Translations under genes and position numbers: made by a program
In this document: positions 11,221 to 20,325 of the stretch, piece by piece
Layout: each line of letters begins with the position of its first letter
Numbering within the stretch: position 1 is the first letter of the stretch
Source of the DNA: Minisyncoccia bacterium
Lineage (GTDB): Bacteria; Patescibacteriota; Minisyncoccia; Phycocordibacterales; JAACPR01
Length of the DNA: 24,000 nt
Assembly (NCBI GenBank): GCA_044375695.1
Contig: JBILMG010000003.1
Location: forward strand, 10,204-34,203
Direction of reading: 5' to 3'
Notes under the pieces: model-generated
The model's database searches: none
What the model saw: only the letters and a program-made list of their open reading frames with translations
Told to the model about the DNA's origin: nothing

Positions 11221-11934
11221 ATGGAAAACAAAGGAGCAATTATTTTTACGGACGGATCGTCCCGCGGAAACCCGGGGCCAGGCGGCTGGGGTTTCGTTTT
11301 GGCGCACCAGGGGCGCGTGCGAGAGGGCGCTGGCCGCGAGGCGCGAACAACCAACAACCGCATGGAAATTCTCGCCGCGGTCGAGGCTCTCGCCGCGCTG
11401 CCGGAGGGTTCGGTCTCCACGGTTATCACTGACTCCTCGTACCTCGCGAACGGCGCCTCGAAGTGGCTGGTCGGCTGGCGGCGCAAGGGTTGGAAGACCG
11501 CCACCGGCGGCGACGTGAAGAACGCCGATCTCTGGGAGCGCATGAACGAGCTCTTGGAAGGGCGAAAGGTGTCGTGGCGCCTGGTCCTTGGCCACGCGGG
11601 CGTGCCGGCCAACCACCGCTGCGACGAGCTCGCCACCGGCGCGGCCGACGGCTCGGTCCTCGACCTCTACGACGGTCCGTCGGCGGGGTACCGCGTGTCG
11701 CTCCAGGCGCCTGCCCCGGGTACCCAGACTCGCTCCGGTGGCGCCGACGGCAAACGGGCTTACTCCTACCTCTCAATGGTCGACGGTGAGATTCGCCGCC
11801 ACAACACCTGGCCCGACTGCAATGCCCGCGTTCGCGGCGCCCAGGGCGCCCGCTTTCGCAAGACCTTCTCGCCCGAAGACGAAGCCGCGCTCGTTTCCTC
11901 TTGGGAAGCCGACGGCGGCCAGAAGAGCTGGTAG
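11221..11934 (+). CDS. rnhA: Ribonuclease HI with a C-terminal hybrid-binding-like domain
   Basis: I chose the ATG at 11221 (MENKGAIIFTDGSSRGNPGPGGWGF...). RNase H motifs: TDGS, NNRMEILAAVEAL, ITDSSYL, HAGVPANHRCDELA. The C-terminal ~50 aa (YSYLSMVDGEIRRHNTWPDCNARVRGAQGARFRKTFSPEDEAALV) resembles the RNase H1 hybrid-binding domain pattern W-x-[DE]-C...V-x-G-x-x-G-A-x-F-[KR]-K-F...[DE]-E-A. Confidence 0.85.
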   Translation: MENKGAIIFTDGSSRGNPGPGGWGFVLAHQGRVREGAGREARTTNNRMEILAAVEALAALPEGSVSTVITDSSYLANGASKWLVGWRRKGWKTATGGDVKNADLWERMNELLEGRKVSWRLVLGHAGVPANHRCDELATGAADGSVLDLYDGPSAGYRVSLQAPAPGTQTRSGGADGKRAYSYLSMVDGEIRRHNTWPDCNARVRGAQGARFRKTFSPEDEAALVSSWEADGGQKSW

Positions 11935-11974
11935 CCGCCGCTACCTCGCCTGAAGCTCTGCTAGAATTTCGGCC

Positions 11975-12718
11975 ATGCTAGAAAAATTTCTCGAGGAAAT
12001 CGGCCTGTCGGGCAACGAGGCAAAGGTTTACCTGGCTCTTCTAGAGCTTGACCACGAATCGGTGCTCGAGCTATCTCGCCGAACCAGTATCAACCGAACG
12101 ACCATCTACCCGATTCTCGAGTCGCTCGCCCGGCAAGGCTTGGTGTCGGAAGTGCAGATTGGCGCCAAGACGCACTACCAGGCCGAACCGCCTGAGCGGC
12201 TAGAGACAGTGCTGGAGCGTCGTAGGGTAGAGCTCGACGGACACCGCAAGCGTCTCTCGGAAGTTGTGCCTGAGATGAAGAGTCGCATGCGCGAAGGTGC
12301 GGCTAGACCTGTGGTGAAGTACTACGACGGCAAAGAGGGCGTTGTCTCCTCGATGGAAGACTTCTTTAGTGCCGGCGCAGAGAAGTCCGACTCCATTTAC
12401 ATGGTTTACAACAAGGATCGTCTGGACGGTCACTTTACTGAGAAAGATCGAGAGCGTTACCGTGGCAAGCGGGTGCACGCTAACGTTCCGGCGGTAGCCT
12501 TGTACTGGTCTGAGAAGGTAACGCTTCCTGAGAAAGGGGTGATGTCCGAGTGCAAGAAGCTTCCGGCTGACGCGGAGGTGCTTTGTGATTTGGCGGTTGC
12601 GGGAGACAAGGTCCGCGTCATCACGCTCGGCAAGAAAGTCTCGAGCCTGATTATCCAGCACCCAGATATCGCGCACACCCTGCGGGTGATACTGAAAGAT
12701 TACTACCGGCGCCTTTAG
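11975..12718 (+). CDS. TrmB-like helix-turn-helix transcriptional regulator
   Basis: 247 aa. The N-terminal winged-HTH (LGLSGNEAKVYLALLELDHESVLELSRRTSINRTTIYPILESLARQGLV) is typical of the TrmB family. It is a paralog of 18648..19400. Confidence 0.8.
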   Translation: MLEKFLEEIGLSGNEAKVYLALLELDHESVLELSRRTSINRTTIYPILESLARQGLVSEVQIGAKTHYQAEPPERLETVLERRRVELDGHRKRLSEVVPEMKSRMREGAARPVVKYYDGKEGVVSSMEDFFSAGAEKSDSIYMVYNKDRLDGHFTEKDRERYRGKRVHANVPAVALYWSEKVTLPEKGVMSECKKLPADAEVLCDLAVAGDKVRVITLGKKVSSLIIQHPDIAHTLRVILKDYYRRL

Positions 12719-12726
12719 TGAGGCTC

Positions 12727-13080
12727 GAAAAAATAAAAGAATAGTCCGGCGTCGCAAGGTGCGACGCCGGACCTGTTTTCGTGGGCCGATTAGTGATCGG
12801 CGCCACCTTTTTCTAAGAGAGAGCTTCTCTCTGGTGGTGGGGGAGGGTTAGTGATTCACTTGGCCACCCCCTTCTCGTTTTGTTTTTTCACTTCTTTTTC
12901 CTCGGGGAGGTTTGGCTAGGCACTGTTAGTCGCGCGGTGTCGCGGGTTGGGGTCTTTCGACCCGTCACCCGCTCCGACCTGCTTCTTAGTGGTCCATCTG
13001 CACCTCCCTGTTGATTGTTGCCTGTCTCGTGGCGCCTGGTGGGCGTCGCAGATTTCCGGTCTGCCCGCGAGATATATTCT
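12727..13080 (-). ncRNA. Candidate ~350-nt non-coding RNA of unknown class
   Basis: It runs from the predicted TSS (~13079/13080, 6-7 nt downstream of a perfect minus-strand TATAAT) to the bidirectional terminator at 12744-12780. It contains no ORF beyond 3 codons. Many helices are visible, e.g. GCGGG..GGGUC-GAAA-GACCC..CCCGC, AGAGAGA-AGC-UCUCUCU and GCCGAU-CACUA-AUCGGC. There is an A-rich linker and a duplicated AUCACUAA motif. Confidence 0.45.
12744..12780. terminator. Bidirectional intrinsic terminator
   Basis: Perfect 13-bp stem GTCCGGCGTCGCA (12744-12756) / TGCGACGCCGGAC (12760-12772), loop AGG. CTGTTTTC lies downstream on the + strand. An A-rich run (GAAAAAATAAAAGAATA, 12727-12743) upstream gives UAUUCUUUUAUUUUUUC on the minus strand. 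Confidence 0.75.
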
Positions 13081-13085
13081 TTTTT

Positions 13086-13113
13086 ATTATAGCAGAAAAT
13101 ACAGGTATGTCAA
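13086..13113 (-). promoter_or_regulatory. Perfect-consensus sigma70-type promoter (leftward)
   Basis: The minus strand reads TTGACA (+13108-13113), a 16-nt spacer, then TATAAT (+13086-13091). It is embedded in an AT-rich island. Confidence 0.7.
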
Positions 13114-13229
13114 CAAACTTCCGTTTTTTCTGCTGCGGGTGACTAGACGGAATAAAAATAAATGTGTCATATAAAAACAACAAAATCTTATTTAACCTTG
13201 TTAATAAAAGCTACTTTAATAAATTTAAC

Positions 13230-13257
13230 TTGACAAAATATTTTAATCGGCTATAAT
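13230..13257 (+). promoter_or_regulatory. Perfect-consensus sigma70-type promoter (rightward) with an A/T-rich upstream tract
   Basis: TTGACA (13230-13235), a 16-nt spacer, then TATAAT (13252-13257). About 90 nt of A/T tracts lie upstream (UP-element-like). Predicted TSS is about 13264. Confidence 0.75.
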
Positions 13258-14014
13258 GCCCGCATAAGAACGTTCAAACAGTCTGACAGGTGCCTTTCGG
13301 CCACCGAATCGATTCCCCCTCCAGCAACCAACAGCCATGAAGCTCGTAGTGCTTCCGAACGGCCTCGTCATCTCCGCTAAGGAGTGGCAAGCCATTCGCG
13401 GTCGCTAATCGCGATCGTTATCTGCTTCCCGGCGAAAGCTTGGGTGGCGGGGGCTAGAGGGGCCCTGTCAACAGAATGAATTCCGCGGCTGTGAGGCTTC
13501 TGATTTCAGCCCCGCGGGAACCATCAGGTTCCCCCATCTATAGAGCCGCCGACCTAGGTCAGGCCGGCGGCTCTACGGACGGATGATCTTTAAAAAGCTC
13601 TAGAAACCCCTCCCACGCGGCTCGCGCACGAAGAAAGCTGCGCGCTCGGCCCGCGTGGGAGGTTGCAGCTCCAGGCCGTTCCGGAACCAGCGTCCGGCGT
13701 AAAAGAGGTGGCACCGTCTGTGGAGACGGGAGATCGCCACAGGATTAAACGAGCCTTCGCCCTATGCGTGGTCGACAGTTTCTCGAGAGATCCTGAGCGG
13801 TTTCTAGAGCCGCACTGCAAATATTTCTCGCTAGTCGTTAGCGGGTGTCAGGGGAAAAGCTAAGACCTCAAGGCTCCCCGAAGTACTCGCGTTCGCCGAG
13901 CTGGTTGCCCGGCGCAAAGAGGGACGCAGCCGGGGAACTGCACCCCGACACCAAAGAGCAGTCGATTGTGTTTCGGCGCATCGATCGGTCTGGGCACCGA
14001 AAACCAAAACGCCC

Positions 14015-14065
14015 ACCCTCGCGGGATGCGTATCCGGCCTGACGAGTCCGAAAGGACGAAAGGGT
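14015..14065 (+). ncRNA. Hammerhead ribozyme, type III (HH1)
   Basis: ACCCU-C| then stem I GCGGGAU-GCGU-AUCCGGC (one G.G mismatch). Then CUGACGA, stem II GUCC-GAAA-GGAC, GAA, and AGGGU pairing back to ACCCU. All core positions are present (C3 U4 G5 A6 N7 G8 A9, G12 A13 A14, A15.1-U16.1, C17). Predicted cleavage after C14020. Confidence 0.75.
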
Positions 14066-14540
14066 CAGACGAACATTCAAACAGAGGAGAAACTCTCCGC
14101 ACCGCCCGGCGCGCGAACCAATCGCGAATCGAGTGGTGCGGGGAGTTGGTTGACCCCTAGGCACGTGAGGTGGAGGGAGCTTCTGGCCCTCACCCGCGAC
14201 CTGATAGTCGCGGGGCAGTCCTGACCGACTGAAGAACGTCGTGCATCGAGAATCGCCAATACGGCTGGCTCATCGTTGAGCCAGCCGCGGAGGAGAAGCG
14301 GGTTCCTGAACCCGTGAAGTATCCACCGCTCCACAACATCTCCCCAAAGGAGAGACACAAGGTTTCGCGCTCCTGCGAGGCCTGTGTGGAGACACCGAGT
14401 CAGGGCAGTGCCTCTAGTCGAGAGGCGGCGAACAGAGATTCGCCGAAGCACTGCAATCGATGCAACGGGCTAGAGCTCGGCGGCAGATTCGGCGCACTTT
14501 TGCCGACTCATCAACCACCTAAAATCCGGCGCGTCAGCGC

Positions 14541-14600
14541 CGGACCCTGTCTCCGGGTGTGTACCCGGACTGACGAGCCCGAAAGGGCGAAACAGGTTCG
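14541..14600 (+). ncRNA. Hammerhead ribozyme, type III (HH2)
   Basis: CGGA(C)CCUGU-C| then stem I UCCGGGU-GUGU-ACCCGGA (7 bp, perfect). Then CUGACGA, stem II GCCC-GAAA-GGGC, GAA, and ACAGGUUCG, giving a 9-bp stem III with one bulged C. GUC cleavage triplet. Predicted cleavage after C14551. Confidence 0.9.
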
Positions 14601-14785
14601 ATACACGACCGCGCGTTCGCCGTCCTGCTGACCCCATTGCGGGGCACTGTCTCGACCCGAGCTTCCACTCTCAAGTGGGCCGGGAGACCGGCAAGACGGA
14701 CGGCGCGTCGGGGCGAAGATGTGGCCATCGTCACCCCGACGCGCCGAAAAGGCGCCTCGAGATCTTTCACAGAAAAACGTACCAG

Positions 14786-14837
14786 CAGCCTGCATCGGCG
14801 CGACGACGACCTATCGTCGTCGCGCCGATGCAGGCTG
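14786..14837 (+). repeat. Perfect 24-bp inverted repeat (hairpin with a 4-nt loop) inside the large RNA
   Basis: CAGCCTGCATCGGCGCGACGACGA (14786-14809), loop CCTA, then TCGTCGTCGCGCCGATGCAGGCTG (14814-14837). There are no mismatches. Confidence 0.9.
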
Positions 14838-15700
14838 AGACGACAGCCAGGGCAGGAGCGGCAGCGCCAGGAACCTAGTGCCGAGGACCGTTCGGTCCGG
14901 TGACGCTTTTACGTCGCTGAGGCGGGCAGGCTCTGTTCGCAAGCGTTTCTCGCGTCGGGTTAAAACCGGTATTAGCCGGATAACCCCGACGTTGTAGAGG
15001 CCCCGCAATAGGCTTCGAGAGAAACGTACGGCAATCGATATCCTAGGACAAAACTCTCTTCGCCTGAGAGTAGCTCCACACCCGCGCGAGCGGGGAACAG
15101 ACTGGAACCACCAGCTGGAGGATTTTCGAAAGTCAGGGAGGAGGTCGAAACGCGGCGTTGCGGCTGCGCGTAGGCTAAACCACCCATCGTCAATTTTTGC
15201 CTTATGGCCTGGTACGGAACCATGGTCCTTGAACCCACCAACCGACAGCTCGGCCTCCCGCGTGTTGCGGTCGGCACCCGGTACGGGTCGCCGAATCTCT
15301 GCCGCCTGGTAGATGTGCGCGTTCCCCGGTTCGCCCGCGACGCGCGGGGCCAGAAGCGCGCGCTCTCCAGAAAGGAGCGTCGCAAGCTCGCCCGCATGGT
15401 GTGGCACTTCGTCCAGCACGAAGGTCGCCACGGATGCGCGTCGATGCTCGGCGCCACCTTTGGCGGCGTGCGCGGCGGAAGGCCGGAAATGCGCGTCGTG
15501 AGCAACGACGGGCCGCCGGAATGGTGACGAGGACCTAAATTCCCGGAGCTCTTACGAGGGAGCGTTCGTACGGGGCGGGGAGGAGCAGACCTCCCTCTGA
15601 ACAGAAGCTCGGGCTGACTCCAAATAGCCCCCGAGCAAAGCGGATTTAAAGCCAAGGTTTCCCACAAACCTGCCCGGACGAGCACCTATCGCTCGCCGGC

Positions 15701-15769
15701 CCTGTCCGCGGGTATGACTCGCGCTGACGATGTCCGCTCGCCGCGTGGCGAGACCAAGGACGAAACAGG
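15701..15769 (+). ncRNA. Hammerhead ribozyme, type III (HH3), with an extended stem II
   Basis: CCUGU-C| then stem I CGCGGG-UAUGA-CUCGCG. Then CUGACGA plus one extra U, and stem II GUCC...GGAC carrying an extension hairpin CUCGCC-GCGU-GGCGAG. Then GAA and ACAGG. GUC triplet. Predicted cleavage after C15706, 90 nt upstream of the ATG at 15797. Confidence 0.8.
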
Positions 15770-15796
15770 TGCAAGAACTTTCGAAAAATAAATACT

Positions 15797-16183
15797 ATGA
15801 GCAACTTCAATTTTAAATCCTACGTTGGCGGCCAGCTCCTCATGCTCACCAAGGCTTTCGGTGCGGCCAGCGGCAAGAAGAACGAAATTTGGCGCCGCGG
15901 TGAGATTGCTGCCATTCGCGAAGAGGGAGACGTCGCCGTCATCGAGTTCGCCTGGACGGCAATCAAGCGAGGCGGCCGGTACTTCCTGGACGATTCGTCC
16001 TCAGAGGTGGCCGTTCCCCTTGGTTCGGCACGCAGCAGCCGAAGCTACTCGTTGGTGGCTTTCGAGCGAAGCGTGGAGCTGCGGCTCGATATGGTGTACT
16101 GCTTTACCGAGCCCGACGACAATCGGAACGTGCCGCTCTCGAAGGTAGGAGAGCAGCGTCCGATTCGGCGGACCTCAAGCTGA
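15797..16183 (+). CDS. Hypothetical protein (128 aa), no recognisable domain
   Basis: ATG-initiated ORF immediately downstream of HH3, with balanced amino-acid composition (MSNFNFKSYVGGQLLMLTKAFG...). Its stop codon is embedded in a strong intrinsic terminator. Confidence 0.6.
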   Translation: MSNFNFKSYVGGQLLMLTKAFGAASGKKNEIWRRGEIAAIREEGDVAVIEFAWTAIKRGGRYFLDDSSSEVAVPLGSARSSRSYSLVAFERSVELRLDMVYCFTEPDDNRNVPLSKVGEQRPIRRTSS

Positions 16184-16202
16184 GGTCCGTTTTTATTTTT
16201 TT
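16170..16202 (+). terminator. Intrinsic terminator
   Basis: GGACCTCA-AGC-TGAGGTCC (8 bp) followed by GTTTTTATTTTTTT. Confidence 0.8.
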
Positions 16203-16249
16203 GGACTTCATCGTCTCTTCACCGTCGGAAACTTACCGTTAGCCGTACC

Positions 16250-17602
16250 GTGTCTCGGACCGTTTCATTGCTCGCCGCTCTGGCTGTCTTTGCTGCATCA
16301 TTTTGGCGCGGCGCGAGTTACGACGCGTCTAATCGTTGCCCTGCTGCGCCGCCGGATGTCCTGCGCGGCGTGGCGGTCGAGGTTCGTGTGGGCACGTTCG
16401 GCGACCGCGCGCTGGTGCGCGGGGAAAATGGAACGTGGGGTTTCGTGGCGGCGGTCGGGAGCGGGGAGGTGGCGGTTGGGGATAAGGTCGAAATATCTGG
16501 AGCCAGGGTTTTCCGTATAAAAGATTTTCTGGGCGACGGCGGACAGATGTTCCCGTACGCGAACCTGATGCGGTCCCGCGGCTACTGCTTCGAGGCGAAG
16601 CGGGGCGAGGTAAAAATTATTGGGAGTTCAGGCGGCTTTGCCGACCAGCTGAGGGCGCTCGGCGTCGCCGCCCGCGAGCGTATTGGGCGCGTCTTGCCGC
16701 CGGTGCCGGCGGCTCTTTCGGCTGGGGCTCTCTTTGGCGGCGACGACGGGATAGGCGAAGATTTAGAAGAATCTTCGCGCCGAGCCGGATTGGCGCACGC
16801 GCTCGCGCTTTCCGGCTTCAATGTGGCGGTTTTCGCCGGGGCAATCGATTTGGTGTTGCGCGGCTTCATGCCGCGCTCCGCGCGTATTTTGGGAGGAGCG
16901 GCCGCTGCTTGGCTCTTGGTGTCTCTGGCCGGGCTGCCACCGTCGGGGGTACGCGCCGCACTCGCCTGGACCGTCGGCGCCGCCGCGCGCCTATCTTTCC
17001 GGCGGGCCGAGGCGCCGCGGGCGCTCCTCTACGCCGCCTTCGTCTACTCCTGGTGGAATCCGCTCGCGATCGCCTTCGATTTGTCGCTGCAGCTCTCGCT
17101 CCTTGCGTGCCTTGGCCTCGCGGCGTGGGCGGCGTCGGCTGCGGAGAGATTGGTGGGGGTTCCGGGCGTGCTCGGCATTCGGGAGGCTGCCGCCTCTACC
17201 TTGGCGGCTACCGTTGCGACGCTGCCGCTCTCGGTGTGGTCTTTCGGGCAAATTTCCCTGGTGGCGCCGCTCGCGAACGCCGCGCTCGCCTACGCTATTC
17301 CCGGGATGATGTGGGCGGGTTTCGCCGCCGCTGCGGTTTCTTTCTCCGATGCTCTGTCTGACGCCGTCGGCTCTGTTCTCGCGCTACCCGCCGAGCTTTT
17401 CTCTTTCGTGGCGCTGCGGTTTGGCGGCTTTGCCTGGTCTAGCGTCTCGGTCTCTTCTGGTCCTGTGCTCGCGCTGCTGGGCTCGTTCGTCGTTTCGCTG
17501 GCGGCGTTCTGGTCTATCGGCGCGGCCCGTCGGCGCGAGGCCGAGGCCTGGACCTCAGAGGTTCTCCGTCTTCGCCGGTCCATCGACGAAACTTCTGGCT
17601 AA
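16250..17602 (+). CDS. comEC: ComEC/Rec2-like DNA-uptake channel protein (OB-fold plus competence membrane domain, lacking the MBL domain)
   Basis: 450 aa from a GTG start. The N-terminal region has a TM helix and a beta-rich segment. The polytopic membrane core has the ComEC-like motif GLAHALALSGFNVAVFAG (compare HLLAISGLH). No C-terminal metallo-beta-lactamase domain is present in this ORF. Confidence 0.8.
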   Translation: MSRTVSLLAALAVFAASFWRGASYDASNRCPAAPPDVLRGVAVEVRVGTFGDRALVRGENGTWGFVAAVGSGEVAVGDKVEISGARVFRIKDFLGDGGQMFPYANLMRSRGYCFEAKRGEVKIIGSSGGFADQLRALGVAARERIGRVLPPVPAALSAGALFGGDDGIGEDLEESSRRAGLAHALALSGFNVAVFAGAIDLVLRGFMPRSARILGGAAAAWLLVSLAGLPPSGVRAALAWTVGAAARLSFRRAEAPRALLYAAFVYSWWNPLAIAFDLSLQLSLLACLGLAAWAASAAERLVGVPGVLGIREAAASTLAATVATLPLSVWSFGQISLVAPLANAALAYAIPGMMWAGFAAAAVSFSDALSDAVGSVLALPAELFSFVALRFGGFAWSSVSVSSGPVLALLGSFVVSLAAFWSIGAARRREAEAWTSEVLRLRRSIDETSG

Positions 17603-17609
17603 AAGAAAA

Positions 17610-17640
17610 CTCGGCTGCCAATCGACAGCCGAGCATTTTT
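17610..17640. terminator. Bidirectional intrinsic terminator between convergent genes
   Basis: CTCGGCTG-CCAATCGA-CAGCCGAG, flanked by AAAAGAAAA upstream and CATTTTT downstream. Confidence 0.7.
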
Positions 17641-18512
17641 CAGACAGCCCCGACGAGCGAGAGCAGGAACGCGTCGCCTCGGTTGGCCGCGCCGGGAATG
17701 CCCAGCTGGCCTGCGAACTGCGCGGCCTCTTCGTCGCCGAAGTTGTCCGGCGTGTGCATGAGCACCATCGAGCTCTTGATTCCATCGGGCAGGGTCTCGA
17801 GCTCTGCAACCGTGGCGTGCACGTTACCGGCGCGCGTCGCGTCGTGGAAGAACCACTCGGCGCCGCGGGCGGCGTACTCTTCCACCAGCTCGCGGTCGAA
17901 ACGCGTGTCCATAGAGACGAACGCGCCGAACTGCGGCAGGTAGAAGCCGTAGGAGACCATCGAATCCCGCCAGCTGTCGGCGGTTCCGGGCGCGTGGCGC
18001 GTCCGGAAGATTTCAATCTTCAGCTCTCCGACGGTTACCCGCTCGGCGCGCTCGCTGATCTGCTCTGGGCGAATCACCCGGAAGTAGTCGTCGACCGTAG
18101 AGGGTGGCGACGTGTCCCAGGCGAGGCCGCCCTTGAGCGTCTCGTCCCACAGGTGCGGTTCGAGCGCGCGAGGCAGCACGAGGCCGGGCTTGCGGTTCGC
18201 CACCCAGCGGCACTCCTGCGCCGCGGTGGCTAAGCCGTTGGCGTGGTCCGCGTGGCAGTGGGACACGAAGAACGCGTCGATGTCGCCGAGCGTGAGCCCG
18301 GTCGATTCGGGGAGCGCCTCGGGCCACTTGCGGCCGCAGTCGATGGCCAGGCGGGTGTTGCCGTGGACGAGGACCAGGTTGGTTTCGCCGCGGCCGCCAG
18401 GTTTGGTGAAGGCGCCGCCGGCGCCGATGAAGGCGAGCGCGAGCTCGCCGCGATTGGTAGATTTAGGGACAACGTTACCGCGTCCCAGGTAGGAAATTCC
18501 GGTAGTTTTCAT
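17640..18512 (-). CDS. Metallo-beta-lactamase-fold hydrolase
   Basis: 290 aa. HxHxDH motif in FFVSHCHADHANG. Additional His/Asp ligand positions are typical of the MBL fold. Confidence 0.85.
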   Translation of the reverse strand: MKTTGISYLGRGNVVPKSTNRGELALAFIGAGGAFTKPGGRGETNLVLVHGNTRLAIDCGRKWPEALPESTGLTLGDIDAFFVSHCHADHANGLATAAQECRWVANRKPGLVLPRALEPHLWDETLKGGLAWDTSPPSTVDDYFRVIRPEQISERAERVTVGELKIEIFRTRHAPGTADSWRDSMVSYGFYLPQFGAFVSMDTRFDRELVEEYAARGAEWFFHDATRAGNVHATVAELETLPDGIKSSMVLMHTPDNFGDEEAAQFAGQLGIPGAANRGDAFLLSLVGAV

Positions 18513-18647: not shown

Positions 18648-19400
18648 ATGAAACAGGAATCAGAGTCGGTCGCCGCCCGCGTCGCCGCGATCGGCCTCGA
18701 CGGCGTCGCCGCCCGCGTCTACGCCGCCGCCCTCGAGCTGGGCGAGGCGCCGGCATCCGAAATTGCCCGCGCCGCGGACGTGCCGCGCACTTCGGCGGCC
18801 TACGCGCTCGACGAGCTGGTGGCGAAAGGGGTGCTCCTCGAGGCTACAAAGGGGCGCGCCACCAGCTACCGCGCGGTGCCGCTCGCCGTCATCTTCGAGG
18901 AGGTGCGCGACAGCCTTCGCTCGGCCGAGGCGCTGCGCGCGGTCGGCGAGAAGAAGCCGGGCGTGTTCCGCCCACCCGAAACCCTCATCCTGCGTGGTCC
19001 CGCCGGCTTCCGCGAAGCCTGGCGCCGCGTCCTCTCTTCTGGGGCCAAGAGCTACACCGTTATTTCCGATCCGCGAGAGTTCCGCGACTACATGCGCGAG
19101 CACGACATTCTGGAAGATTTGATTGCCGAGAAGGTTCGCCGGAACATGACCAGCCGCAACATCGTCGTGGACTCTGACTACTCGCGCGACGTCTTCAAAA
19201 AAGATTCGTCCGAGAATCGAGAGACGCGCTTCCTGCCGAAAGGTTTCCCGGTGCCGTGCGTGGAGGTTGCCTGCGAGGAGCTGGCTTTCTTTGCCATGCC
19301 GCGCCTGGACGGCACCATTGTGCTGGTTGATTACCCCGAGTTTGGCCAGTCGCGCCTCGCGGTCTTCGAGGCGGTCTGGGCAACCCTGGGGGAGAGGTAG
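18648..19400 (+). CDS. TrmB-like helix-turn-helix transcriptional regulator (second paralog)
   Basis: 250 aa. N-terminal wHTH: LDGVAARVYAAALELGEAPASEIARAADVPRTSAAYALDELVAKGVL. Its length and architecture match 11975..12718. Confidence 0.75.
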   Translation: MKQESESVAARVAAIGLDGVAARVYAAALELGEAPASEIARAADVPRTSAAYALDELVAKGVLLEATKGRATSYRAVPLAVIFEEVRDSLRSAEALRAVGEKKPGVFRPPETLILRGPAGFREAWRRVLSSGAKSYTVISDPREFRDYMREHDILEDLIAEKVRRNMTSRNIVVDSDYSRDVFKKDSSENRETRFLPKGFPVPCVEVACEELAFFAMPRLDGTIVLVDYPEFGQSRLAVFEAVWATLGER

Positions 19401-19445
19401 GGGAGGTCTTGCCGCTCTTGTTGCCCCGGTGTAGACCGGGGCAAT

Positions 19446-19664
19446 ATGGAACCTTCCGCAATTACGCCCCCTCTCAAAAAATTTGAAGCCTTCCGCGACG
19501 GCCGCGAGAGCGTGCTGCCGACCGGCCGCCTCAAGGTCGAAAACGGCGCCCTCTTCCAGGAAGCCGAGGTCATCACCCACAACGGACCAGACGTGGGCGT
19601 GCGCCACGTCTGGTTCCCGGTTATTCAAACGATAGCGGACGCGCTAAGGCAATCAACCGGCTAA
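19446..19664 (+). CDS. Hypothetical small protein (72 aa)
   Basis: ATG ORF with ordinary composition, ending inside a good intrinsic terminator. I recognise no family. Confidence 0.45.
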   Translation: MEPSAITPPLKKFEAFRDGRESVLPTGRLKVENGALFQEAEVITHNGPDVGVRHVWFPVIQTIADALRQSTG

Positions 19665-19680
19665 GCCGGTTTTCTTTTTT
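19655..19680 (+). terminator. Intrinsic terminator
   Basis: AACCGGC-TAA-GCCGGTT followed by TTCTTTTTT. Confidence 0.75.
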
Positions 19681-19716
19681 GCCTGACGCGCCTCGCTTCC
19701 GGGGCGCGTCGGTTAA

Positions 19717-19746
19717 TTGACAAATTAATATAATGTATGATAAATA
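19717..19746 (+). promoter_or_regulatory. Putative promoter (TTGACA plus an extended -10) for the zinc-ribbon gene
   Basis: TTGACA at 19717-19722, then TG-A-TAAATA at 19738-19746 (18-nt spacer), in an AT-rich patch. This implies a ~175-nt C/A-rich leader. Confidence 0.4.
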
Positions 19747-19924
19747 AACAACAGGCGGCACCGTAAAACAAAAAATAACCAACCGTTTCCCGTCGCCGTT
19801 CTCCCGTTCCGCACAAGACCATAGCCGCTGACCACCCCCGGTCGGACGCTGCGTTCTTCTGCGCCAGCCGGTAGACCCCGGAACAGCAGACCAACGAAAC
19901 AAAAAATACAAAAATACCAAACAA

Positions 19925-20281
19925 ATGGAATTCAACGGCATTGATTACACCAACGAATCAGATTTCCTAGACGCTATCGAGGAGCACGAAGCTCGCGCCG
20001 AATTTGGAAAAAAGTTCGCCGCGGCTTGCGCTCTTCACGAAAAAACACTCGCCCGCCAGGAAAAAGAAAAATTACCCGAAGGGCGGCGCGACTCAATACC
20101 AACGAGAGCGGAAGCAAAGATCACCAAAAGAAAATACAGCTTCATTTGCCCGGAGTGCGCCGCTCGGCATGATTACGAACTCGCCGAGGGCGGGGAGCAC
20201 GAGGTTGTCTTCCGCTGCCCAGGGTCGTGGTGCGGCAGAAGGCTGCGCCTCTGTGATTTCGATGCGGGCGCCTACGTTTAA
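19925..20281 (+). CDS. Hypothetical zinc-ribbon protein (118 aa)
   Basis: C-terminal CPEC...(x21)...CPGSWC, a four-Cys arrangement typical of zinc ribbons. The N-terminal half is charged and helical. Confidence 0.6.
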   Translation: MEFNGIDYTNESDFLDAIEEHEARAEFGKKFAAACALHEKTLARQEKEKLPEGRRDSIPTRAEAKITKRKYSFICPECAARHDYELAEGGEHEVVFRCPGSWCGRRLRLCDFDAGAYV

Positions 20282-20293
20282 AAGTTAAAAAAC

Positions 20294-20325
20294 CAGCGCG
20301 GCAACCATGCCGCGCTGTTTTCTTT
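20294..20325. terminator. Bidirectional intrinsic terminator
   Basis: CAGCGCGGCA-ACCA-TGCCGCGCTG (10 bp), flanked by AAAAAA upstream and TTTTCTTT downstream. It lies between convergent genes. Confidence 0.75.

Follow-up and report, generated by a model that had tools for sequence, protein, structure and literature searches.

Clusters of hammerhead ribozymes that flank single genes within prophage-like polycistronic transcripts are known from bacteria, and their cleavage has been demonstrated in vivo as well as in vitro (Perreault et al., 2011, PMC3088659). In Agrobacterium tumefaciens, for example, a triple hammerhead surrounds ardA and is adjoined by a marR regulator and an integrase, and such clusters have been proposed to divide long transcripts into gene-sized RNAs (PMC3088659). 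Here, we describe a locus with three predicted same-strand type III hammerhead ribozymes in a 24,000-nt stretch of DNA from an uncultivated Minisyncoccia bacterium (contig JBILMG010000003.1 of assembly GCA_044375695.1; hereafter the window), where they lie on the transcribed strand of a predicted promoter, its genes and a terminator. Sequence comparison indicates that this locus is probably a hammerhead-punctuated accessory operon that gives rise to a ribozyme-processed polycistronic transcript. An earlier note had interpreted most of it, at 13264-15790, as a candidate giant structured RNA of unknown class.

Like the operons of Perreault et al., the locus features several same-strand hammerheads within 2-3 kb that flank single small genes varying between genomes, and it is accessory DNA with an adjoining winged-helix regulator. 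Unlike those operons, two of its four predicted products are essentially gene-free and highly structured, and it encodes no integrase or recognisable phage gene. It also differs in representing a module of its own, comprising a TrmB-type regulator, a 128-aa protein family, a leader and pre-ribozyme hairpins, which is found in several uncultivated lineages.

Rfam analysis of the whole window at the gathering score (48.5 bits for RF00008, Hammerhead_3, which is a curated score threshold rather than a biological feature) returned no match, while the E-value mode exposed RF00008 twice and no other family. These matches are hammerhead 1 (14013-14067, + strand; 30.9 bits, E = 7e-4) and hammerhead 2 (14544-14598, + strand; 46.2 bits, E = 3.4e-8). 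Hammerhead 3 (15699-15771, + strand) was missed by Rfam and was found by eye and with a strict core-plus-three-stem scan, which recovered hammerheads 2 and 3 in the window and no hammerhead on either strand of four relatives that lack this region. Cleavage is predicted after C14020 (CUC, 14018-14020), C14551 (GUC, 14549-14551) and C15706 (GUC, 15704-15706), respectively. All three copies have the core CUGACGA ... GAAA with an A15.1-U16.1 pair and an NUH triplet directly 5' of helix I, and the minimum free energy fold of each isolated sequence is a three-helix junction. For hammerhead 2, this minimum-energy fold has a z-score of -2.8. The copies agree with RF00008 type III in the CUGANGA...GAAA core, the NUH site and three covarying helices, of which I and II are loop-closed and III is open, but they deviate from it in score (30.9 bits, 46.2 bits or missed, versus 48.5) and, in copy 3, by a longer stem II and one additional U following A9.

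To compare the ribozymes across lineages, 12 hammerheads from this window and related loci (distinguished here by L numbers) were aligned. In this alignment, 98.4% of stem cells are paired and 12 of 16 pairs show compensatory changes; none of 500 shuffles reached these values and register-shifted pairing was at most 48%. A family covariance model built from the alignment (R1), for which hammerheads 1 and 3 were training members, scored hammerheads 1, 2 and 3 at 68.6, 76.8 and 56.8 bits. With filters off, R1 gave exactly three matches in the window, all on the + strand, with the next best at 14 bits. It also recovered untrained copies in L021 (7823-7896, 49.9 bits) and L027 (215-285, 59.2 bits), as well as a partial copy at the contig end of L007 (1-32), and had no match in the relatives without the island. 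Hammerhead 1 and its flank are orthologous to L025 3038-3092 (82% identity), hammerhead 2 has an ortholog at L025 3860-3914, and the orthologs of hammerhead 3 in L006, L007 and L027 show stem I covariation. The L019 hammerhead scores 49.4 bits, which is above the Rfam cut-off. Further matches to a ribozyme-plus-leader pattern in L022, L023, L024 and L026 were rejected, as they had no hammerhead fold by eye and no R1 match at E <= 1. Together, the Rfam E-value mode, the motif scan and the family model contradict the view that the region has no ribozyme signature.

The ribozymes are preceded by a perfect TTGACA-N16-TATAAT promoter at 13230-13257 on the + strand (12/12 matches), as the earlier note had reported, and a promoter scan identified a second perfect copy, its divergent twin, at 13113-13086 on the - strand. 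The scan thus found two perfect promoters, compared with 0.6 expected in shuffles. Both sigma-70-type promoters are within an AT-rich control region (13086-13257, GC 0.47) that also features a conserved upstream box (~13160-13200), and near-consensus sigma-70-type promoters can be read from the L025, L009, L021 and L019 loci. A promoter and terminator scan of 12600-16400 detected only these two promoter-like sites. The only + strand terminator downstream of the + promoter, and the sole + strand terminator-like site in 12773-16400, is an intrinsic terminator at 16167-16200 that consists of an 11-bp stem (16167-16191) and a T run. A single transcription unit of ~2.9 kb, from ~13264 to ~16195, is therefore predicted. 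This includes the entire interval flagged in the earlier note, which would represent the first ~2.5 kb of the unit and thus the front part of an mRNA-bearing operon.

There is almost no long open reading frame (ORF) in the ~3 kb between the gene for the TrmB-type regulator (11975-12718) and a 128-aa ORF (15797-16183), and ~84% of 13264-15790 has no credible coding sequence and no codon periodicity. The claim that this interval contains no protein-like ORF nevertheless fails at two places. A 107-aa arginine-rich protein is encoded at 15204-15527 (+ strand) with the GC1/2/3 pattern of real genes in this genome (0.70/0.55/0.81), where other local ORFs are flat, and gene finders called this ORF on all copies. 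A homolog (P0018) is 82% identical over 107 aa, and L027 contains the coding sequence for its C-terminus immediately before the orthologous hammerhead. A weak reciprocal match between the 107-aa protein and an 85-aa protein of L025 (E ~ 0.1) is confined to a basic stretch and could at most hint at homology. The second place is a candidate 23-codon ORF at 13337-13408 (+ strand; MKLVVLPNGLVISAKEWQAIRGR) that is conserved in one relative, L025. The L025 counterpart (MKVHILPNGLVISHEEWLATRGR) retains the start, length and stop position with a different stop codon, and the two share 16 of 23 residues, with three synonymous codon changes. Downstream of hammerhead 3, the 128-aa gene (15797-16183, + strand) belongs to a small conserved family that has eight members according to a profile search. 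The gene for this protein is found on 20 contigs from several metagenomes; those that were fetched match the window at 100% identity throughout this region. A confident AlphaFold model of the family indicates an all-beta domain (pLDDT 87) that has no match at E <= 0.001 among PDB and viral folds, and neither the 107-aa nor the 128-aa protein has a match in Pfam, PHROGs or PADLOC.

Most hammerheads, as well as the predicted transcription start, are followed by a short motif, (A)GAWCNTTCRAA. Copy 1 (AAGAACGTTCAAACAG; 13263-13281, + strand; direct-repeat family D2) would be the 5' end of the transcript. Copy 2 is part of a 5' module after hammerhead 1 (14066-14172, + strand) that also contains a long hairpin (~14092-14140) and the box GACCCCTAGGCACGTGAGG; similar modules are present in L021 (6470-6560, with one compensatory pair) and L025 (3104-3206). 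Copy 3 (GCAAGAACTTTCGAAAAATAAATACT; 15770-15796, + strand) is directly before the start codon of the 128-aa gene and is 94% identical over 32 nt to the leader that follows hammerhead 3 of L025. The motif recurs after hammerheads in the window, L025, L006, L007, L019, L021 and L027. A fourth leader-like motif (GATCTTTCACAGAAAAACG, ~14761-14779) follows a hairpin (14701-14746) rather than a ribozyme, and this is also the case in L025. A fourth, degenerate hammerhead was therefore considered at this hairpin and was rejected, as the core is absent from both the window and L025 and R1 finds no match. In the low-GC relatives L009 (2200-2270 and 2870-2930) and L019 (9860-10000 and 10500-10650), each cistron of the operon is preceded by a near-identical 60-140-nt copy of a leader (for example AACCGTTTTAAAACARARTACGTC...AACGTCAC in L009). 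On the basis of these low-GC relatives, the repeated leader appears to be a general theme of the module, although leader sequences differ between lineages.

The 5' side of the ribozymes shows a comparable pattern, where a stable hairpin precedes the hammerhead in most cases. Directly upstream of hammerhead 2 is a hairpin at 14526-14543 (+ strand; from the fold of 14520-14620), which would form the 3' end structure of the RNA upstream of this ribozyme. Hammerhead 3 is directly preceded by a two-hairpin tail (15655-15699, + strand; GGTTT...AAACC and CCGGACGAGC...GCTCGCCGG). An alignment of this tail from five lineages supports 15 pairs, three of which have compensatory changes in L025, and the tail is found before hammerhead 3 in the window, L006, L007 and L027, and before hammerhead 2 in L025. 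For hammerhead 1, we observed that a conserved 3' flank, GGGUCAG, which L025 shares, is able to base-pair with CUGAC in the core (within 13995-14090), and this alternative pairing may provide an on/off structure.

L025, which was found via a DNA pattern of hammerhead plus leader, is colinear with the window. Blocks of alignable sequence cover the TrmB gene (window 11973-12426, L025 876-1326, 70% identity), the promoter, upstream box, leader, micro-ORF and non-coding block (13160-13581, a blastn block aligned to L025 2141-2555, 68%), hammerhead 1 with its leader (14014-14092, L025 3039-3117, 82%), hammerhead 2 (14547-14600, L025 3863-3916, 81%), a further conserved block (14603-14780, + strand, L025 4125-4293, 74%) and hammerhead 3 with its leader (15756-15787, L025 4925-4955, 94%). 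The RNase H proteins of the window and L025 are only 50% identical, so the alignable non-coding DNA indicates constraint. The conserved non-coding block at 13409-13665 (+ strand), which is 68% identical to L025, contains hairpins at 13534-13582 and 13609-13662; its indels are not multiples of three and RNAalifold shows compensatory changes in 6 of 51 pairs. The block at 14603-14780 contains the 14701-14746 hairpin (21-nt arms, 90%) and the leader-like GATCTTTCACAGAAAAACG; the base of this hairpin is identical in L025, while its top differs with compensatory changes. What is conserved in L025 is therefore the three ribozymes, the post-ribozyme leader, the pre-ribozyme hairpins and a few other local hairpins.

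The content between the ribozymes is different. Between hammerheads 1 and 2, L025 has an ORF of 85 aa, and between hammerheads 2 and 3 one of 147 aa. The position after hammerhead 3, which is occupied by the 128-aa gene in the window, is taken up by an STIV B116-like gene in L025. Among the cassette proteins of the relatives, only this STIV B116-like and a kinase-like protein, both of L025, matched Pfam, PHROGs or PADLOC. Comparison of the relatives indicates that this content is mosaic, shuffled and interchangeable, with ORF cassettes in some loci and none in others.

Cleavage at the three sites would yield four pieces: A (~757 nt), with the 23-codon ORF and structured RNA; B (531 nt), which lacks an ORF; C (1155 nt), with the 107-aa gene; and D (~490 nt), with the 128-aa gene. 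The hammerheads may serve mainly to release A and B as stand-alone, stable, highly structured non-coding RNAs, rather than to separate mRNAs. The 5' modules (leader motif, long hairpin and a GACCCC...ACGUGAGG box) recur as far as L021, at 42% GC. We consider this version of ribozyme processing unlikely, yet if true, A and B would represent a new class of RNA that is matured by ribozymes and forms part of an accessory module of uncultivated bacteria under TrmB control, and piece C might additionally be circularised.

A quite improbable alternative is that the region is a decayed gene cluster, in which A, B and the front of C derive from protein cassettes whose ORFs have disappeared, with incidental hairpins and an RNA that is a mere spacer. 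Some support for decay comes from relatives that carry ORFs where the window has none: the 85-aa and 147-aa ORFs of L025 have no equivalent at the corresponding places, the L007 piece before the last hammerhead carries a 156-aa ORF, and much of B and the middle of C cannot be aligned to L025. However, a tblastn search with all cassette proteins of the relatives found no remnant in the window island, and the best match (E 0.1) is inside the intact 107-aa gene. Folding 4-8 standard deviations below shuffles is not expected of pseudogenes, and 13409-13665, 14066-14172 and 14603-14780 are 68-82% identical to L025 despite the divergence of RNase H. In addition, indels in the conserved blocks break the reading frame and several hairpins have compensatory changes. 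The 5' pieces of L025 and L021, at 800-860 nt, likewise lack a credible long ORF.

The piece between hammerheads 2 and 3 (14552-15706, 1155 nt, with the 107-aa gene) has a further conceivable fate, namely excision and ligation into a circular RNA by the ribozyme or an RtcB-type ligase. The stem III strands of hammerheads 2 and 3 (CCCUGUC and GAAACAGG) are interchangeable, and the same applies in L025 and L007, so the excised ends can rebuild a complete hammerhead, and the size range of retrozyme circles covers 1155 nt. This compatibility is near-automatic, however, given that 10 of the 12 aligned ribozymes share CUGUC/GAAACAG, which is similar to the general hammerhead consensus. In retrozymes and viroid-like circular RNAs (de la Pena and co-workers, PMC7229834, PMC7761336), hammerhead pairs likewise bracket 0.5-1.2 kb of mostly non-coding structured RNA. 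In the window, direct repeats are limited to the ribozymes (43 nt, 81%) and the leader motif (17-30 nt), with no repeat beyond the ~50-nt ribozyme and nothing resembling a long terminal repeat. The pieces are also mutually different and branched, and they are located in a bacterial operon with protein genes and no sign of retrotransposition. In circular minimum-energy folds of the excised pieces, the maximum ladder distance relative to length was 0.11-0.13, which is no higher than for shuffles, and a rod-like, viroid-like or obelisk-like fold was rejected on this basis. No ligase is known in this genome, and circular products of bacterial hammerhead clusters were sought by Perreault et al. and none were found (PMC3088659). 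Overall, we regard such a circular RNA as very unlikely.

The structural observations that led to the giant RNA proposal are themselves sound. All of the listed helices exist, including 14786-14837, 14701-14746, 13609-13662 (25-nt arms, 80%), 13597-13612 with 13795-13810 (16 nt, 94%) and the 14261-14288 hairpin. Hairpin density is beyond chance: in sliding 200-nt windows compared with dinucleotide shuffles, the mean z-score on the + strand was -2.87 in 13300-15100 versus -0.20 in flanking genes, and whole pieces fold 36-78 kcal/mol below mononucleotide shuffles. This density is not a GC artefact. The perfect 24-bp hairpin at 14786-14837 (+ strand, 100% complementary) is lineage-specific, as it has no counterpart in the L025 alignment, and by eye the helix 13597-13612/13795-13810 has none at the aligned L025 positions. 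Of the minimum-energy pairs of 13258-13700, 18 changed pairs were kept and 49 broken in L025, compared with 23-30 kept and 42-50 broken in register-shifted controls, and the other blocks behave in the same way. A conserved global fold was therefore rejected. We also observed that the hairpins 14701-14746 (21 bp) and 14786-14837 (24 bp) are long enough for RNase III substrates; RNase III-type cutting here would constitute a second, protein-dependent processing site.

Large bacterial RNAs such as GOLLD, ROOL, HEARO, OLE and raiA are similarly ORF-free and strongly structured over hundreds of nucleotides and are often found in mobile DNA, but the present locus lacks a conserved global architecture and is interrupted by self-cleaving ribozymes, and none of these or other Rfam 15 non-coding RNA models matched 12700-16300 at E <= 10. 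A single folded molecule of a new class comparable to GOLLD, ROOL, OLE or HEARO, as favoured by the strong promoter, scarce ORFs, strongly negative folding z-scores throughout, multi-helix junctions by eye (such as 14405-14454) and the restriction of Rfam matches to hammerheads, is extremely improbable in light of three self-cleaving ribozymes and a 107-aa gene inside it, its continuation into the 128-aa gene before the first terminator, the unconserved pairing and missing 13597/13795 helix in L025, and between-ribozyme content that differs and is rearranged among relatives. Of the original proposal, the strong predicted promoter, the dense structure and the largely non-coding character stand, and the single giant RNA does not.

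The ribozyme region is part of a larger unit. Comparison with relatives marks 11975 to ~16230 as a ~4.3-kb accessory block between rnhA and comEC that comprises the regulator, the divergent promoters, the ribozyme region and the 128-aa gene. In L011, L013, L015 and L017, the gene order is the same and RNase H is directly followed by ComEC, 20-200 nt apart, and the block is therefore an insertion/deletion polymorphism. This contradicts the view that the region is not a foreign island. The TrmB gene is absent from the rnhA-comEC interval of these four relatives, whose ComEC and RecJ are 62-70% (BLASTP/tblastn) and 77-83% identical to those of the window. In L025, the one island-bearing contig with ComEC that also reaches rnhA, the island is located between RNase H (50% identical) and ComEC (37%). 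The island also adjoins ComEC in L006, L007 and L027, where the 128-aa protein is 75, 69 and 55-56% identical, respectively. This distribution fits either an old resident that was lost by one clade or a site-specific insertion. An imperfect direct repeat, TAGCCG(CCGC)TACC, is present at both block edges (11932-11945 and 16239-16250) and could be a target-site or att remnant, or chance. Independent assemblies of this organism and its relatives repeatedly break inside the region, at window-equivalent positions 13336 (L003), 12968 (L004), 15591 (L005) and ~15633 (L006) and inside a hammerhead in L007, which suggests strain-level heterogeneity or assembly trouble caused by hairpins.

The association of ribozymes with this gene content is recurrent. 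At least 15 ribozyme copies in at least eight lineages share a common layout of upstream hairpin, hammerhead, leader motif and small gene, and the module recurs in several uncultivated lineages that range from 36% to 65% GC. Three hammerheads each are present in the window (within 1.76 kb), L025 and L021. A hammerhead is found within ~100 nt of the 128-aa family gene in seven of eight members, upstream of it in the window, L006, L007, L021 and L027 and downstream in L009 and L019; the eighth member, on the 1.1-kb contig L028, had no convincing hammerhead match. A TrmB-type gene accompanies the family member in the window, L019 and L021, while L009 has a serine recombinase in its place. In L025, which has no 128-aa family member, a TrmB homolog adjoins the hammerhead operon. 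Scans of GTDB species genomes, JGI metagenome contigs and IMG/VR, for which the 128-aa family, ComEC or TrmB served as queries, returned no relative, and the host itself has no representative among the GTDB species genomes searched.

The first gene of the block (11975-12718, + strand) encodes a TrmB-family helix-turn-helix regulator (Pfam TrmB, E = 1.3e-15) and has a GC content of 56%, compared with ~66% in neighbouring genes. Homologs adjoin the hammerhead operons of L025 (54% identity) and L021 (45%), and the TrmB-family gene adjoining the L019 operon is only weakly similar to that of the window. The - strand promoter would drive a divergent ORF-free RNA candidate of ~335 nt (12743-13079, - strand; promoter 13113-13086) that ends at a bidirectional terminator (12744-12772). 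It features a Shine-Dalgarno (SD)-like GGGAGG followed by a three-codon ORF, ATG GAC CAC TAA (ATG 12997-12995, TAA 12988-12986), and folding z-scores of -3 to -9, and has no Rfam family match. A strong SD with a tiny ORF can be seen by eye in L025 (six codons) and L021 (three codons), as can the box GAAAAGAAGTGAAAA, and the terminator stem covaries in both. L025 has a further perfect TTGACA-N16-TATAAT and ~250 nt of ORF-free, hairpin-rich sequence between RNase H and TrmB (600-878), for which the window has no counterpart.

Several points weigh against a ribozyme-processed operon. All three ribozymes fall below the Rfam gathering cut-off (30.9 bits, 46.2 bits and no match). Stem I of hammerhead 1 has one G-G mismatch, and with its flanks the minimum-energy fold of this copy is not a hammerhead. 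The core of hammerhead 3 has one extra U after A9; some natural hammerheads do carry an extra residue after A9. L025 is the only homolog that covers the 5' 1.9 kb. The transcription start, the single unit and cleavage in vivo are all inferred, and ~73% of the transcript has no assigned function. The processing of mRNA would also leave the retention of 1.9 kb of dense, partly conserved structure unexplained. Finally, the window contains no integrase or phage hallmark gene and has no match to PHROGs, phage genomes (DNA or protein) or IMG/VR, and a "prophage-like" label rests on relatives, through the STIV B116-like gene of L025 and the serine recombinase of L009.

We propose the following model for the hammerhead-punctuated operon. 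The adjacent TrmB-type regulator would probably repress both divergent consensus promoters. Once transcribed, the nascent RNA would self-cleave co-transcriptionally after C14020, C14551 and C15706 to release pieces A-D. Each downstream product would start with a 5'-OH and a folded ribozyme body, while each upstream product would end in a hairpin and a 2',3'-cyclic phosphate. The cistrons would thereby become physically separate RNAs, each stabilised on its own, in the manner of natural or engineered ribozyme insulators. RiboJ-type insulators place a hammerhead and a hairpin between the promoter or untranslated region and the gene. The hammerheads described here similarly lie 25-90 nt before a start codon, where cleavage would strip the upstream RNA context and leave a structured 5'-OH end, but this is a natural arrangement with a conserved leader motif, and its function is deduced. 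The conserved ribozyme and leader sequences are also likely joints for the exchange of cassettes between lineages.

Elsewhere, the window is ~63% GC chromosomal DNA with housekeeping genes that include TIM, PGK, RecJ, a two-component pair, RNase H, ComEC, SOD and ribosomal protein S12. A second variable spot is present at 19400-20300, between a second TrmB gene and SOD, where two ORFs (19446-19664 and 19925-20281, the latter with 55% GC) have no Pfam match. Both are absent from L011, L017 has a different ORF at this position, and R1 finds no hammerhead here. At 17640-18512 (- strand), a gene encoding a metallo-beta-lactamase-fold protein matches the Pfam family "Anti-Pycsar protein Apyc1" (86.5 bits, versus a cut-off of 50); it is present in L011 and L017 and absent from L013 and L015.

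An arrangement known since 2011 is thus now found in an uncultivated bacterium, and it is unusual in how much of its product is structured and non-coding. None of the three ribozymes is recovered at default Rfam thresholds, and sequence that is ORF-free and hairpin-dense in GC-rich DNA need not be one giant RNA. This module offers a compact comparative system for asking what bacterial hammerheads are for. With a putative repressor, consensus promoters and close relatives without the block as controls, it allows direct tests of whether the ribozymes process and insulate the transcript and of what becomes of the gene-free pieces.

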